From: a virus
Lineage: Duplodnaviria; Heunggongvirae; Uroviricota; Caudoviricetes
Reading direction: 5' to 3' (one strand)
Length of the DNA stretch: 4,612 nt
Virus record (IMG/VR): IMGVR_UViG_2693429700_000015
The translations under genes were made by a program, and so were the position numbers. Under the pieces are notes generated by a model. That model did no database searches, was not told the origin of the DNA, and saw only the letters and a list, made by a program, of their open reading frames with translations. Position 1 is the first letter of the stretch. Each line of letters starts with the position of its first letter. Below, one piece after another: positions 601-4,533 of this stretch.

Positions 601-990
601 CTAACATTTTCTTTTTACTTTTCCAACAAAAGCTTTGGTTGAATCCATATTTCCATAACCGGAAATGGTTTTTGACATTAAAACTGTTCCAGTAGGATGT
701 ATTACCCATGAGTCGATAACGCGTTGAGTTTCGCCATTCGCGCCGATTCCTATGATGGAGTTTTTAGACAATTCTTTGTAAGCCATGCCGCCCGCATCTG
801 TCCCAGAATATGTGATGCTGGCATCTTCACCGCTTGTCTTAATGATGAATGTTCCACTAAAACCATCTTCTTCCGGATGGAAATTATTTCGCTCTGAATA
901 GCTTATTCCGCGCATATCTCCAACGACCCAGCACTCTGCTGTAGCCCCAAAAGATATGAATAAGAACATAGCAGCAAGAAATTGCTTCAC
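601..990 (-). CDS. hypothetical secreted/periplasmic protein with Sec-type signal peptide
   Basis: 129-aa ORF with GTG start at 990-988 preceded by a strong Shine-Dalgarno (GGAGG at 1000-996, 5-nt spacer). The N-terminus MKQFLAAMFLFISFGATA-E has a basic residue, a hydrophobic core and an A-x-A cleavage motif. The mature protein has one Cys near its N-terminus and one at the extreme C-terminus. Family not recognised. Confidence 0.6.
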   Translation of the reverse strand: MKQFLAAMFLFISFGATAECWVVGDMRGISYSERNNFHPEEDGFSGTFIIKTSGEDASITYSGTDAGGMAYKELSKNSIIGIGANGETQRVIDSWVIHPTGTVLMSKTISGYGNMDSTKAFVGKVKRKC

Positions 991-1227: not shown

Positions 1228-1364
1228 AACGTAATGGTTTAAACATGTCGCTAAAGTGGTTGTAAGTTAGCCTCCGAAGGATTGCTGATAGCTTTGTTAT
1301 AGTATTAAATGACATTTGACATAGTTGGATACTTAGCTGCGGCTATCAAGATGGAGGTATGTTT

Positions 1365-1808
1365 ATGCTCACTTGTTTTGATGTCGCCGACTACTTCTTG
1401 GCGCATTGCGATGAAGAAAGTGGCGACATTATCTCTAACCTAAAAATTCAGAAGTTGACGTATTATGCCCAAGGGTTTTCTCTGGTTCTTCTGGGTAAGC
1501 CGCTATTTAATGAGAAAATTGAAGCCTGGATGCATGGGCCAGTAGTTCCTGAATTGTATCGTAAATATAGGGACTGTGGTAACGGCGCTTTACCTGCGCC
1601 AGAAAACTTTGACGCTAAAAAATTCAGTGAAGATGAAATTGAATTGCTGGATGAGGTGTATAAAGTTTATGGTCAGTTTTCTGCCTGGAAACTGCGCAAT
1701 ATGACTCACGAAGAGCAGCCATGGAAAGATGCTTACATTGAGGGTGCGGTTAGCCAAGAAATCACACTTGATTCTATGAAAGGTTTTTTCAAAACGTTAA
1801 TTAACTGA
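1365..1808 (+). CDS. Panacea-domain (DUF4065; GepA/SocA-like) protein, putative antitoxin of a PanA/PanT-type module
   Basis: The segment KIQKLTYYAQGFSLVLLGKPLFNEKIEAWMHGPVVPELY matches the conserved core of DUF4065/Panacea proteins as I remember it (KLQKL-Y-AQ ... PLF-E-AW-HGPV). Start chosen at ATG 1365 (GGAGG at 1353-1357, 7-nt spacer) rather than the track ATG at 1359, which is only 1 nt after the Shine-Dalgarno. A TTGACA hexamer lies at 1316-1321 inside a tandem TGACAT-T-TGACAT, about 45 bp upstream. Confidence 0.75.
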   Translation: MLTCFDVADYFLAHCDEESGDIISNLKIQKLTYYAQGFSLVLLGKPLFNEKIEAWMHGPVVPELYRKYRDCGNGALPAPENFDAKKFSEDEIELLDEVYKVYGQFSAWKLRNMTHEEQPWKDAYIEGAVSQEITLDSMKGFFKTLIN

Positions 1809-1813
1809 CGTGT

Positions 1814-2236
1814 ATGTCTAGAGTTAAGGGAAGAATAAAACAGAGGGATAAAGAGAGCTCTGCTACTGTTGGCCTCTCTATCCATCACGAATCTCATGAT
1901 GTAGACAAAAGTCCGCCTGTATTTTCTCTTAGATACCTACAAAAGGGGTATTGCCTAGATTGCTGCCAAAAGCATGAAAAGGCAGCATTTGCAGATAGGC
2001 TGTTCAGGTTAAGTCAGATGTCATGGGATGAGATACGAAAATCTGATAAACACGGGCTTGGGACGGAAAAAATTGCCAGAAACGCGATAAAGGCTCCGAT
2101 TCCTAAGCATGTTACTCAAGATGTGGATTTCATTGCGTTCAGATTTTGCTCTAAGGCACCTATGGTTGGTTATAAGATAGGAGCCACTTTTTATGTCTTA
2201 TGGCTCGACAGGGAGTTCAAGCTATACAAGCACTAA
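1814..2236 (+). CDS. hypothetical protein; candidate toxin partner of the upstream Panacea-domain protein (family not recognised)
   Basis: 140-aa ORF starting 5 nt after the Panacea gene stop (operon arrangement) and ending at a strong terminator. No Shine-Dalgarno at the 1814 ATG, so translation would need coupling; an alternative internal start at ATG 2018 (AGGT 8 nt upstream) would give 73 aa. Basic N-terminus, Cys cluster (CLDCCQKH), C-terminus GYKIGATFYVLWLDREFKLYKH. No family recognised from memory. Confidence 0.5.
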   Translation: MSRVKGRIKQRDKESSATVGLSIHHESHDVDKSPPVFSLRYLQKGYCLDCCQKHEKAAFADRLFRLSQMSWDEIRKSDKHGLGTEKIARNAIKAPIPKHVTQDVDFIAFRFCSKAPMVGYKIGATFYVLWLDREFKLYKH

Positions 2237-2279: not shown

Positions 2280-2483
2280 TTAACCAAATCGATCCTTAAA
2301 GCGTCTATCGCTGTTGCGTCTCTCCATTTTACTGTTGCAGTACGGACAAAGATGCTGTTTCTTTCCATCGATAGTCCATGTGAAGTACTTTTTCTTAAAT
2401 CCAGCACCACAGATATCGCAACTTCTTGGTTTAAACATGCTGGCTATGAAGACAAGAACAACAAATCCTATGATCCATTCCAT
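2280..2483 (-). CDS. small membrane-anchored zinc-ribbon protein (67 aa), function unknown
   Basis: N-terminal hydrophobic helix (EWIIGFVVLVFIASMF) followed by CxxC...(17 residues)...CxxC (CDICGAG...CPYCNS) and a basic tail. Ends at the bidirectional terminator. Shine-Dalgarno is weak (ACAGG about 10 nt upstream). Confidence 0.5.
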   Translation of the reverse strand: MEWIIGFVVLVFIASMFKPRSCDICGAGFKKKYFTWTIDGKKQHLCPYCNSKMERRNSDRRFKDRFG

Positions 2484-2624
2484 ATCATGTACCTGTTTTA
2501 ACTTTATTTTTTGTTTTTTAGGGATTAATCAGAAACTTTATCTTGCGATTAAGCAAAGCTACTAGCTAACAAAAGAGTGCGTATACAATCAATCGTTTCA
2601 CATCAACCTCAACAAGGAGAAATC

Positions 2625-2810
2625 ATGACCATAGAAGAACGCCTGAACAACATTGAGTTGAACCAAACCCTGCTTGACCAGCGACTTTCAGATCTTGAGC
2701 TTAAAGATCTTGATGCGCAAATATCAGAAGCAGAAGCCAAGCTCTCCAGCCTAAACCACCGCAAGAAGCAAATCCGCAACAGAATTACTCAGGGACGCGG
2801 AAGCTGTTGA
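2625..2810 (+). CDS. small coiled-coil-like hypothetical protein (61 aa)
   Basis: ATG at 2625 preceded by a strong Shine-Dalgarno AAGGAG (2614-2619, 5-nt spacer). Sequence MTIEERLNNIELNQTLLDQRLSDLELKDLDAQISEAEAKLSSLNHRKKQIRNRI has heptad-like Leu/Ile spacing. A TACAAT -10-like hexamer lies at 2584-2589. The track ORF start at 2577 (GTG) lacks a Shine-Dalgarno and would contain this promoter-like element. Confidence 0.5.
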   Translation: MTIEERLNNIELNQTLLDQRLSDLELKDLDAQISEAEAKLSSLNHRKKQIRNRITQGRGSC

Positions 2811-2994
2811 GGTGGGATGCTAGGTCTCTATCGTTAAAATCAAGGCTGCTAATCATTTCATTGTAAATGGCGTTTTTATCTTCCATTGGCAGTCTTGAGT
2901 AAACCAGACACAGAGCATATTTCAGGGAGTTTAGCTCTTTCTCTAGCTCTTCCTTGCTTGACGTTTTTGACTTAATAAACTGTTTTTTATTCAT
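2785..2994 (-). CDS. hypothetical protein (69 aa) translationally coupled to mnt
   Basis: Its start ATG (2994-2992) overlaps the mnt stop in an ATGA arrangement, with AAGGA about 6 nt upstream inside the mnt 3' end. Hydrophilic, no transmembrane segment, family not recognised. Its 3' end overlaps the convergent 2625..2810 ORF by 26 nt. Confidence 0.5.
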   Translation of the reverse strand: MNKKQFIKSKTSSKEELEKELNSLKYALCLVYSRLPMEDKNAIYNEMISSLDFNDRDLASHLNSFRVPE

Positions 2995-3239
2995 TTTGCA
3001 TCCTTACCATACATGGTTTTCAGTGTTTCAAGCAGCGCCTCTTTGAATTTGTCAGCTTCTTGCTGAGCAAATGACTCAACTGACTTTGGCGACCTATCTT
3101 CATCAATCGCGGCTTGCAAAATCATGACGATCTCGGAGTTAACAGAGCGACCATTTTTTGATGCTCTGACAGCAAGAGCCTCGCGCAAAGATTCAGGGAT
3201 TCTTACCGTAGTTGGAGAAATTGACACACCCTTTGCCAT
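2991..3239 (-). CDS. mnt: Mnt-like ribbon-helix-helix repressor (immI region)
   Basis: 82 aa. TTVRIPESLREALAVRASKNGRSVNSEIVMILQAAI is an Arc/MetJ-type RHH motif (beta-strand, G-R-S-x-N-S-E helix). Length and C-terminal helix (FKEALLETLKTMYGK) parallel phage P22 Mnt (83 aa, C-terminus ...VFDTLKDLYKK) as I recall it. Transcribed divergently from the arc-ant pair, as in P22 immI. Confidence 0.8.
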   Translation of the reverse strand: MAKGVSISPTTVRIPESLREALAVRASKNGRSVNSEIVMILQAAIDEDRSPKSVESFAQQEADKFKEALLETLKTMYGKDAK

Positions 3240-3353: not shown

Positions 3354-3506
3354 ATGGAGAAAGAAATAAGTAAGATTTTGGTAAGGATGCCGCAGTCGTT
3401 AAAGGACGCTATCGGTAGCAGGGCAAAGGAAGAATGCCGGTCGTTTAACTCGGAAGTGATTAAGCGGTTGATAGACAGCCTGAAGAGAGAGGGGATAACG
3501 GTGTGA
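3354..3506 (+). CDS. arc: Arc-like ribbon-helix-helix repressor
   Basis: 50 aa. ILVRMPQSLKDAIGSRAKEECRSFNSEVIKRLIDSLKREG aligns motif-for-motif with P22 Arc (FNLRWPREVLDLVRKVAEENGRSVNSEIYQRVMESFKKEG) as I recall it. Start at ATG 3354 with GGAGGG 4 nt upstream; the track TTG start at 3318 is rejected. Confidence 0.8.
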   Translation: MEKEISKILVRMPQSLKDAIGSRAKEECRSFNSEVIKRLIDSLKREGITV

Positions 3507-3738
3507 TTCGCTTGGATGCAGTAGTCAAAGAGATTGCGATTACCATTTTAAGACCAAATTTTGTTCATGGCGAATCATTTGGCACGAACGAAAAATTGAG
3601 AAGAGAAAGAGTATTCAGTGGCAAGCGCACATTTTCAGAAGTGATGCTTGATGCGGCAAAGAAATCAAAACAGTGAAGCCCCAACTGCGGTAACAGTCAG
3701 GGCTTCGGTTGTCGGTAAATTCGTGGAGAAAAACCAAC

Positions 3739-4533
3739 ATGAATAGTATAGCAATTTTAGAAGCAGTGAACACCTCTTACGTACCATTCAACGGTCAGCA
3801 AATTATCACCGCCATGGCTGCCGGAGTTGCATATGTTGCGATGAAGCCAATCGTTGAAAACCTTGGAATGAGCTGGTCAACGCAGCAAACAAAACTCATG
3901 AAGCAGATTAGCAAATTCAACTGTGTTCATATGAACATGGTTGCCGCTGATGGGAAGCTTCGTAAGCTACTCTGCCTTCCTTTGAAGAAGTTAAATGGAT
4001 GGCTGTTCAGCATCAACCCCGAGAAAGTTCGAGCTGACATCCGCGATAAACTGATTCAGTACCAGGAAGAATGCTTTACTGTACTGCATGACTACTGGAC
4101 AAAGGGAAAGGCAGAAAATGCACGTAAGAAAACATCTGTTGATGACAGGACTCCGCTTCGTGATGCTGTAAATATGCTAGTCAGCAAAAAGCATCTAATG
4201 TACCCAGAAGCTTATGCAATGATTCATCAGCGTTTCAATGTGGAAAGTATTGAAGAGCTTGATGCATCTCAGATACCGCAAGCCGTAGAGTACATCCACA
4301 GGGTAGTGCTTGAAGGTGAGTTCATCGGCAAACAAGAGAAGAAGCCCAACGGGCTTTCCGCAAAAGAAACAGACATCCTTGTATGGCTGTGGGATTATGC
4401 CAACCGCTCACAGGCATTATTCCGCGAACTGTATCCGGCGCTGAAACAAATTCAATCGAACTATTCCGGCAGATGTCATGACTGCGGTTATGAGTTCTCC
4501 CGTATTATCTGTATTAGCTCAGACCTGATCTGA
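3739..4533 (+). CDS. ant: phage antirepressor (P22 Ant-like, N-terminal P22_AR_N-type domain)
   Basis: [21 protein letters not shown]...[12 protein letters not shown]...[27 protein letters not shown]...[16 protein letters not shown] matches the conserved N-terminal domain of P22-type antirepressors as I remember it. It lies downstream of arc in the same orientation, as in immI. Start taken as ATG 3739 (GGAG at 3725-3728) rather than the track TTG at 3709. Confidence 0.75.

Follow-up and report, generated by a model that had tools for sequence, protein, structure and literature searches.

We studied a stretch of 4,612 nucleotides (nt) from a virus of the Caudoviricetes (IMG/VR virus record IMGVR_UViG_2693429700_000015), hereafter called the window, and in particular its open reading frame (ORF) 2280-2483 on the minus strand, which encodes a membrane-tethered zinc-ribbon protein of 67 amino acids (aa), referred to by the shorthand ZR. 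Comparison of homologous sequences indicates that this ORF is almost certainly a genuine gene under purifying selection. The window is the immI or “ant moron” region of a P22-like Escherichia coli prophage, and across the loci compared the conserved association of ZR is with the mnt-type repressor operon of immI, the Panacea gene next to it in the window being an incidental neighbour. The gene is of a known kind, the lysogen-expressed morons of the ant moron; what is new is the architecture of the protein. The best overall explanation, which we put forward tentatively, is that ZR is a bitopic inner-membrane cargo protein of immI that would be made in the lysogen and would have an exclusion or defence role.

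Conservation of the ZR gene

The ZR gene and its immediate signals are the following:

2280-2483, minus strand: ZR coding sequence, 67 aa, ATG at 2483-2481 and TAA at 2282-2280; protein MEWIIGFVVLVFIASMFKPRSCDICGAGFKKKYFTWTIDGKKQHLCPYCNSKMERRNSDRRFKDRFG
2491-2494, minus strand: weak Shine-Dalgarno-like sequence AGGT, its AGG core (2494-2492) 8 nt upstream of the ATG
2238-2263, both strands: hairpin and probable two-way intrinsic terminator (stem 2242-2247/2252-2257, loop GTCA), with an A-run on one flank and a T-run on the other

An earlier note, made from the sequence of the window, had proposed a small protein gene at this position, and its 67-aa ORF is confirmed, with an ATG start and a TAA stop. 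The chance expectation for an ATG-initiated ORF of at least 60 aa that encodes both a CxxC-N10-30-CxxC pattern and a hydrophobic 15-mer is 0.0015 per window, as estimated from 2000 simulated windows matching the dinucleotide make-up. The decisive evidence that ZR is more than a chance ORF is its conservation. Full-length homologues, 58-100% identical, are present at about 75 loci across the Enterobacterales. Pattern scans gave 74 loci, 26 in species-representative genomes and 48 in viral contigs, and the genera concerned include Yersinia, Serratia, Morganella, Proteus, Photorhabdus, Xenorhabdus, Dickeya, Erwinia, Enterobacter and others. With tblastn, ZR was found in Klebsiella and Edwardsiella phage records, and a search of 5.8 billion proteins retrieved 17 protein clusters whose full-length identity is 66-96%. 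Start and stop are at matching positions, with the frame open in between, in all but three of about 80 loci, the exceptions being two truncated copies and one frameshifted copy.

Selection was analyzed on 31 distinct ZR sequences of 204 nt. The numbers of variable columns at the first, second and third codon positions were 40, 31 and 65 of 67, respectively. For non-saturated pairs, the Nei-Gojobori ratio of nonsynonymous to synonymous substitution rates (dN/dS) was 0.056 in the ZR frame and 1.3-2.5 in four other frames; the value of 0.19 in the codon-antiparallel frame is a known artefact. Over all pairs, the corresponding ratio of the proportions of differences (pN/pS) was 0.19 in the ZR frame; the codons of the membrane anchor alone gave 0.27 and all others 0.17. 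The value for the anchor codons argues that the N-terminal helix is translated.

The earlier note had allowed that the ORF might not be conserved, or that a reading frame on the opposite strand, 2193-2501 or 2314-2565, might be the real gene. This second alternative, in which ZR is a spurious ORF, finds some backing in RefSeq. In three complete E. coli genomes inspected (UMNK88, UMNF18 and ETEC1738) nothing is annotated on the ZR strand, and in UMNK88 the Prokaryotic Genome Annotation Pipeline (PGAP) annotates a 309-nt plus-strand ORF instead (WP_158414285.1; L001 3994-4302, which is 2193-2501 on the plus strand of the window). UMNF18 and ETEC1738 have no gene at all annotated over ZR on either strand. 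Against this stand the comparative data: the two plus-strand ORFs (reverse frames 0 and 1) contain one to four stops in diverged homologues, and the dN/dS values of their frames are about 1.3 and the artefactual 0.19, whereas the ZR frame is open with a value of 0.056. Besides, neither plus-strand ORF matched a family in an NCBIfam search, and the ORF starting at 2193 would overlap the plus-strand gene 1814-2236 at its end and extend across the terminator hairpin. The antisense ORFs were rejected as true genes on the stops and the dN/dS values, and we give the spurious-ORF alternative almost no probability. The RefSeq treatment of the locus is probably one mis-annotation and two omissions, and a correction is warranted, since ZR is left out of all three genomes and replaced by an antisense ORF in one of them.

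Architecture of the ZR protein

Three segments make up the protein:

2433-2477, minus strand, codons 3-17: single transmembrane anchor WIIGFVVLVFIASMF, predicted N-out/C-in
2337-2420, minus strand, codons 22-49: C4 zinc ribbon CDIC-N20-CPYC, with the beta-hairpin YFTWTIDGKKQHL between the knuckles
2283-2336, minus strand, codons 50-67: basic C-terminal helix NSKMERRNSDRRFKDRFG, with the motif M-x-R-R-x-S...F-K-D-R-F-G

The N-terminal transmembrane helix, zinc ribbon and basic tail that had been noticed before are borne out by hydropathy, cysteine positions, charge and an AlphaFold2 model. The segment W3-F17 is uniformly hydrophobic (mean Kyte-Doolittle value 2.66) and is flanked by the acidic E2 on its N-terminal side and the basic K18 and R20 on its C-terminal side. 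The ribbon begins four residues after the membrane helix. Its cysteines are at positions 22, 25, 46 and 49, so that the spacer between the CxxC pairs is 20 residues and not 17, a miscount in the earlier note. Residues 18-67 contain 14 K+R against 5 D+E (net charge +9), and the tail (residues 50-67) has a net charge of +4. The AlphaFold2 model, built from an alignment of 18 sequences, has a mean predicted local distance difference test (pLDDT) score of 82 and consists of a helix (2-16), two strands (34-38 and 41-45; pLDDT 84-88) and a second helix (47-66). The two CxxC knuckles with, in the predicted model, a beta-hairpin between them are those of a C4 zinc ribbon.

C22 is invariant, and C25, C46 and C49 are kept in at least 90% of the homologue sequences. 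Besides the four cysteines, the invariant or near-invariant residues are W3, P19, F29, K30, K32, Y33, T35, W36, I38, G40, K41, K42, Q43, L45 and P47 and, in the tail, N50, K52, M53, R56, F62, F66 and G67. The protein would adopt an N-out/C-in topology, with a cytoplasmic ribbon and only Met-Glu in the periplasm, judging by the positive-inside rule and by the dependence of zinc-thiolate sites on the reducing conditions of the cytoplasm. Cys22, Cys25, Cys46 and Cys49 form a putative binding site for one zinc.

A family of juxtamembrane zinc-ribbon proteins

None of the curated models in Pfam, NCBIfam and PADLOC reached its threshold with ZR. The best Pfam match was the generic zinc finger Zn_ribbon_8 (PF09723; 16.9 bits, cut-off 34.4), besides which DZR_2 (PF18912) gave 15.4 bits (cut-off 27) and the NCBIfam model TIGR00270, the N-terminal ribbon of aMBF1, 22.8 bits (cut-off 110). 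These weak alignments span residues 21-58, approximately. The generic models resemble ZR in having two CxxC knuckles around a beta-hairpin, but they describe soluble domains that lack the membrane anchor, the fixed N20 spacer and the ZR motifs K-[RK]-K-Y-[FY]-T-W-x-I-[DE]-G-K-K and M-x-R-R-x-S. Names such as “aMBF1”, “Nob1” and “pyruvate formate-lyase activating enzyme-like” on some cluster members result from this weak generic-ribbon similarity. PHROGs gave one weak match of unknown function. A Foldseek comparison of the AlphaFold2 model with PDB and BFVD gave no match at E <= 0.001, the best being generic treble-clef, FYVE and ZZ fingers, and a profile search of PDB sequences gave chance matches to C2H2 linkers only.

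The exact 67-aa protein is called on 425 contigs and is deposited as “hypothetical protein” wherever it is named, in line with the earlier remark that small proteins of this sort are largely uncharacterized. Literature searches by topic and by accession found no paper on the protein, and the papers on epsilon34, P22 SieA and Edno5 describe the region without mentioning the ZR gene.

A profile search of 1.84 billion cluster representatives gave 300 matches at E <= 0.001, 71 of them at E <= 1e-10. Family statistics were taken from the best 150 of these 300. Two CxxC pairs are present in 143 of the 150, and the spacer is exactly 20 residues in 131 of the 143. The hydrophobic helix usually ends two to five residues before the first cysteine; one helix precedes the ribbon in 65 representatives and two in 55, and the tail after the last cysteine has a median length of 19 residues. 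The core of the family reads K-[RK]-x-Y-x-W-x-[IL]-x-G-K...C-P-x-C-N. ZR shares these features, with a gap of 4 residues, the N20 spacer and a tail of 18 residues. As judged from the sequences, these proteins form a coherent and unnamed “juxtamembrane zinc ribbon” family (transmembrane segment, CxxC-N20-CxxC and basic tail), which is widespread and uncharacterized.

In longer members the module follows signal-peptide-bearing SH3, Sel1 or LprI-like regions, or precedes SHD1 or HIRAN. A Pfam scan of 30 longer members gave SH3_3/SH3_4, Sel1, SHD1 and HIRAN as fusion partners, and no enzymatic or known defence domain among the partners of these 30. Distant family members lie on contigs that look phage-like, and context look-ups on these mostly short contigs brought out no recurrent partner gene. 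HIRAN, a domain that binds DNA ends, was met twice with distant members (P0081, L095 3592-4059 and L097): one is a fusion of transmembrane segment, ribbon and HIRAN, its gene directly following one that resembles a phage tape-measure gene, and the other is a HIRAN gene at a distance of three genes from a distant member. These two cases hint at DNA ends and are too few for interpretation.

Association of ZR with mnt-type repressor genes

The genes around ZR that bear on its association are the following:

1359-1808, plus strand: Panacea antitoxin-like gene (protein-family match)
1814-2236, plus strand: candidate toxin gene (phrog_8366)
2625-2810, plus strand: gene for a coiled-coil-like protein of 61 aa (phrog_7586), with a good AAGGAGA ribosome-binding site
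2785-2994, minus strand: gene for a 69-aa protein of unknown function (orf69; phrog_16466), its start overlapping the mnt stop by 4 nt
2991-3239, minus strand: mnt-like maintenance repressor gene, 82 aa, Arc/ribbon-helix-helix family (Pfam Arc, E = 9.6e-11)
3354-3506, plus strand: arc (protein-family match)
3672-3738, minus strand: sar antisense RNA (Rfam RF00262; 87.1 bits, gathering score 43; E = 3.9e-18)
3739-4533, plus strand: ant (protein-family match)

The mnt-like gene is divergent from arc and ant, and the sar RNA between the arc-side genes and ant makes this a complete P22-type immI region. Ejection-protein genes (Inj_translocase, P22_gp16 and P22_gp7) flank it upstream, and the Ant and Head_binding tailspike genes downstream. 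ZR lies in the interval that holds ant moron cargo, after the last ejection-protein gene and before that for the tailspike, which agrees with its earlier placement in a prophage accessory region. The late operon runs along the plus strand, and ZR, the 69-aa gene and mnt are oriented against it, as are mnt, orf59a and sieA in P22.

The earlier note had framed ZR as convergent on the Panacea operon, and this proved to be an accident of one prophage. Among 21 closely related, near-identical P22-like loci, the convergent neighbour of ZR is the Panacea pair in nine and a P63C-domain gene or other cargo in the others, and no Panacea gene was seen at the remaining loci, about 70 in number. That ZR might be a functional third component of the adjacent Panacea (SocA-like) toxin-antitoxin system is suggested by physical adjacency and by the hairpin terminator common to both in the window; ZR is encoded on the opposite strand, though, and its co-occurrence with the pair is not conserved, which makes this extremely unlikely. 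A tie between ZR and the Panacea pair was rejected on synteny, and in context ZR is better read as cargo of the immI mnt operon than as a gene convergent on the Panacea operon.

A comparison across related prophages, which the earlier note had suggested as a check, showed ZR to be conserved and linked to the mnt-type repressor operon. In 31 loci of other phage lineages, ZR is located 0-37 nt downstream of an Arc/Mnt-family gene, and in 14 P22-like loci and the window it is 508-744 nt downstream of such a gene on the common strand. Pfam Arc was matched by nine of ten scanned upstream proteins (E from 7e-10 to 4e-20), one of which also matches Repressor_Mnt. In the other lineages, the upstream Arc/Mnt gene is divergent from a small Arc-like gene and one or two antirepressor genes. 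In myovirus-type contigs with baseplate and tail genes, the whole block, ant and arc divergent from mnt and ZR, is inserted antisense among the tail genes; in one such contig (L085) a CI-like repressor (HTH_3 and Peptidase_S24) takes the place of mnt directly upstream of ZR.

This linkage could also mean that ZR is an accessory of the immI switch, a membrane-tethered modulator of Mnt, Arc or Ant that, for example, sequesters or stabilizes the antirepressor or repressor and tunes induction. The linkage is tight and recurs with diverse mnt-type genes (76-152 aa, with differing C-terminal halves) in at least two virion types, and an antirepressor gene is present within about 1.5 kb at nearly all mnt-linked loci. 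On the other hand, the immI region of P22 works without ZR and has an unrelated gene in that slot, and ZR is found after a plasmid RelE module as well as after the CI-like repressor. At 25 of 25 species-representative chromosomal loci, it stands alone among genes that, identified by eye, appear to be ordinary host genes, with no Arc/Mnt or Ant gene nearby; ZR therefore needs no phage context. Relatives in distant taxa have other architectures. We consider a role as switch accessory distinctly unlikely.

ZR also occurs on plasmids. The 5.1-kb Klebsiella ColE1-type plasmid pKC25-20651D (L092 159-880; Rop present) carries a TraY-type ribbon-helix-helix antitoxin gene followed by RelE and ZR, with a ZR homologue 87% identical to the Klebsiella-type representative, and an IncF plasmid of Escherichia marmotae has ZR in a group of hypothetical genes, with a reverse-transcriptase gene close by. 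The position next to toxin-antitoxin modules in the window and on the Klebsiella plasmid, together with that near the reverse-transcriptase gene, might suggest that a small single-pass hydrophobic protein such as ZR is itself a membrane toxin or abortive-infection effector, damaging the membrane when triggered. We regard this as highly improbable: the zinc ribbon and the tail are most conserved, not the helix, no conserved partner could act as antidote, ZR appears to be co-expressed with always-on repressors, and the Panacea pair is absent from most ZR loci.

Transcription and expression

The mnt-like gene is probably the first gene of a transcription unit that ends after ZR and that probably also includes the 69-aa gene. 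Consensus scans of the minus strand between 2484 and 2640, upstream of ZR, gave no convincing sigma-70-like promoter, which favours read-through from mnt over a promoter of its own. In the window, the interval from mnt to ZR showed no hairpin with a T-run, and ZR, which shares its strand with mnt and lies downstream of it, is followed by the probable terminator, as expected for cargo of the mnt operon. From these features, ZR is most likely transcribed from the mnt promoter, with transcription ending at the 2242-2257 hairpin, and we think it likely that it is expressed in the lysogen. If ZR is read from the mnt promoter, the 61-aa gene at 2625-2810 is transcribed head-on against that transcript. 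An AT-rich spacer of 141 nt separates this gene from ZR, from which it diverges, and at its 3' end it shares 26 nt with the convergent 69-aa gene; it is present beside ZR in 21 of 21 P22-like loci and in no other lineage.

A precedent for this arrangement is orf59a of P22, which occupies the matching slot in the same orientation, directly downstream of mnt and antisense to the late operon; the P22 annotation reads mnt, orf59a and then a terminator assigned to mnt. Both products are small, of unknown function and presumably made in the lysogen. The two differ in that the P22 product (59 aa) is hydrophilic, has neither a membrane segment nor cysteine pairs and bears no sequence relation to ZR, and in that the window has two other small genes between mnt and ZR. 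No orf59a was found at ZR loci with tblastn.

The 2242-2257 hairpin is located 5 nt past the stop codon of the plus-strand gene 1814-2236 and 22 nt past that of ZR. RNAfold gave -18.6 kcal/mol for the plus strand and -15.4 kcal/mol for the minus strand. Rfam gave sub-threshold matches only, to the terminator ends of small RNAs. The earlier note had described a bidirectional terminator common to ZR and the candidate toxin gene. The hairpin and its A- and T-runs are indeed present, so a shared two-way terminator for the Panacea/toxin unit (plus strand) and the ZR-containing unit (minus strand) is structurally plausible, although the hairpin is not among the sites listed by a stricter terminator scan of the window. 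GC hairpins also follow the ZR stop codon in several other lineages. As supporting evidence only, a crude hairpin and T-run detector, which misses many, found terminator-like sites downstream of ZR in 17 of 62 distinct downstream regions. Many homologues in other lineages have a stronger GGAG or AAGGAG sequence at the same distance from the start codon as the AGGT of the window. Genomes vary by a single base in the T-run at 2258-2263 (an A-run on the minus strand), as seen when the window is set beside UMNF18 and ETEC1738; this explains matches of 421 versus 422 bases and does not affect the ZR ORF.

Possible role of ZR

The tentative explanation given at the outset, a lysogen-made inner-membrane cargo protein with an exclusion or defence role, can be set out in steps. 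ZR would be moron cargo of immI, oriented with mnt and against the late operon. Its transcription in the lysogen would start at the mnt promoter, in the manner of orf59a in P22, and it would so be a product of the prophage state. The protein would insert N-out/C-in through its 15-residue N-terminal helix and bind one zinc, which would place the very basic ribbon and C-terminal helix at the cytoplasmic surface of the inner leaflet. The theme common to its settings may be low, constitutive expression while the mobile element is resident, and ZR may then act in superinfection exclusion or defence to protect the carrier cell or the element, for example by using its basic zinc ribbon to bind DNA on its way in or a component of entry or ejection.

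Such a carrier-protective role is favoured because ZR is found again and again with autoregulated, always-on operons for repressors or antitoxins of prophages and plasmids, and because the region houses SieA in P22. The presence of family members on prophages, plasmids and phage-like contigs from distant taxa also speaks for an exclusion role. SieA is an inner-membrane exclusion protein, expressed in the lysogen, that blocks DNA delivery, and its block of DNA injection through the ejection proteins gp16 and gp20 has been shown experimentally (PMC10883804). The ant moron is a documented variable cargo site (PMC2629481). As a prophage-expressed inner-membrane protein from the same moron, encoded on the mnt strand (PMC10883804; PMC2629481), SieA is a model for the possible role of ZR. 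It differs from ZR in its size (about 160 aa), its several hydrophobic segments, its own promoter and its lack of a zinc ribbon, and tblastn found no similarity between the two. When all 93 loci were searched by tblastn with one of the three divergent SieA types, that of P22, only P22 itself matched, and no ZR locus did. This absence is compatible with an exclusion role, weakly so because slots compete and because a single SieA type was used.

Small phage exclusion proteins with one or two membrane passes, often encoded by moron genes, include HK97 gp15, T4 Imm and lactococcal Sie2009, all located in the membrane. ZR is similarly small, phage-encoded and predicted to be membrane-located, a likeness by analogy only, and none of the three is known to have a cytoplasmic zinc ribbon.

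Several observations weigh against this explanation. ZR would be almost unexposed to the periplasm, whereas known injection blockers are larger or span the membrane several times. The PADLOC scan gave no match for ZR. Fusions of other family members to SH3, Sel1 and SHD1 point to a generic module for anchoring or signalling, and the 25 chromosomal copies have no Arc/Mnt neighbour. Read-through from mnt is not assured in the window, because ZR is 301 nt from the preceding minus-strand gene, with the plus-strand gene 2625-2810 in between. Finally, the ant moron is the sole cargo site of the P22-like late region, which makes proximity to mnt partly unavoidable there. An exclusion or defence role for ZR is speculative, and we hold it to be somewhat doubtful.

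Some of the same observations fit a lysogenic-conversion factor that alters host physiology by acting on anionic lipid or on a host inner-membrane machine (a protease, a transporter, or a secretion or division component). The juxtamembrane ribbon is highly basic (net +9), the fusions to extracytoplasmic SH3, Sel1 and SHD1 resemble trans-membrane anchoring or signalling proteins, and stand-alone chromosomal copies exist in many genera. We nevertheless judge it unlikely, as no conserved host partner gene adjoins ZR in any context examined, the family is enriched on mobile elements, and family, structure and profile searches revealed no similarity to a characterized regulator.

Within the exclusion or defence explanation, a more specific and rather unlikely version is that ZR is the founding member of a mobile-element family that guards the resident element from the cytoplasmic face, its ribbon capturing DNA ends or the tip of the entry conduit. 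If true, this would be an exclusion mechanism distinct from the periplasm-facing or multi-pass blockers SieA, Imm and HK97 gp15. The genes that a prophage expresses in the lysogen determine which further phages and plasmids can enter the bacterium, and the immI/ant-moron slot beside mnt is a known home of such genes. ZR bears the marks of a functional protein: it is under strong purifying selection, its architecture is unusual and fixed, its diverged relatives on prophages, plasmids and chromosomes number in the hundreds, and it is repeatedly attached to always-on repressor operons. As a well-defined candidate, it could be included at low cost in screens for exclusion or defence.

Other genes and exchanged cargo

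Two further genes were detected in the window:

3503-3676, plus strand: gene for a 57-aa protein of unknown function (phrog_17642), its GTG start overlapping the arc stop
601-990, minus strand: ORF of 129 aa, unknown function (phrog_2651), with an N-terminal signal-peptide-like segment

The candidate toxin encoded at 1814-2236 matches the C-terminal part of the PADLOC model NsnC (E = 1.8e-7) and, below the cut-off, the NCBIfam model MAG6450_fam (25.1 versus 40 bits). In related prophages, the 69-aa gene downstream of mnt is replaced by genes of 105, 122 or 178 aa. The 57-aa gene lies between arc and ant, a site at which P22 has no gene.

Between ZR and the last ejection-protein gene, cargo has been swapped among near-identical prophages (about 600-2240 of the window compared with L032, L034, L035 and L086-L091). 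The alternatives at this site are the Panacea pair, in two variants (100% and 70% identical), a 322-aa P63C-domain gene, and genes of 143 or 164 aa, and the recombination boundary is seemingly at or near the 2242-2257 hairpin. The 129-aa ORF at 601-990 is located beside the end of an ejection-protein gene and against the late operon, and is a possible lysogen-expressed cargo gene.

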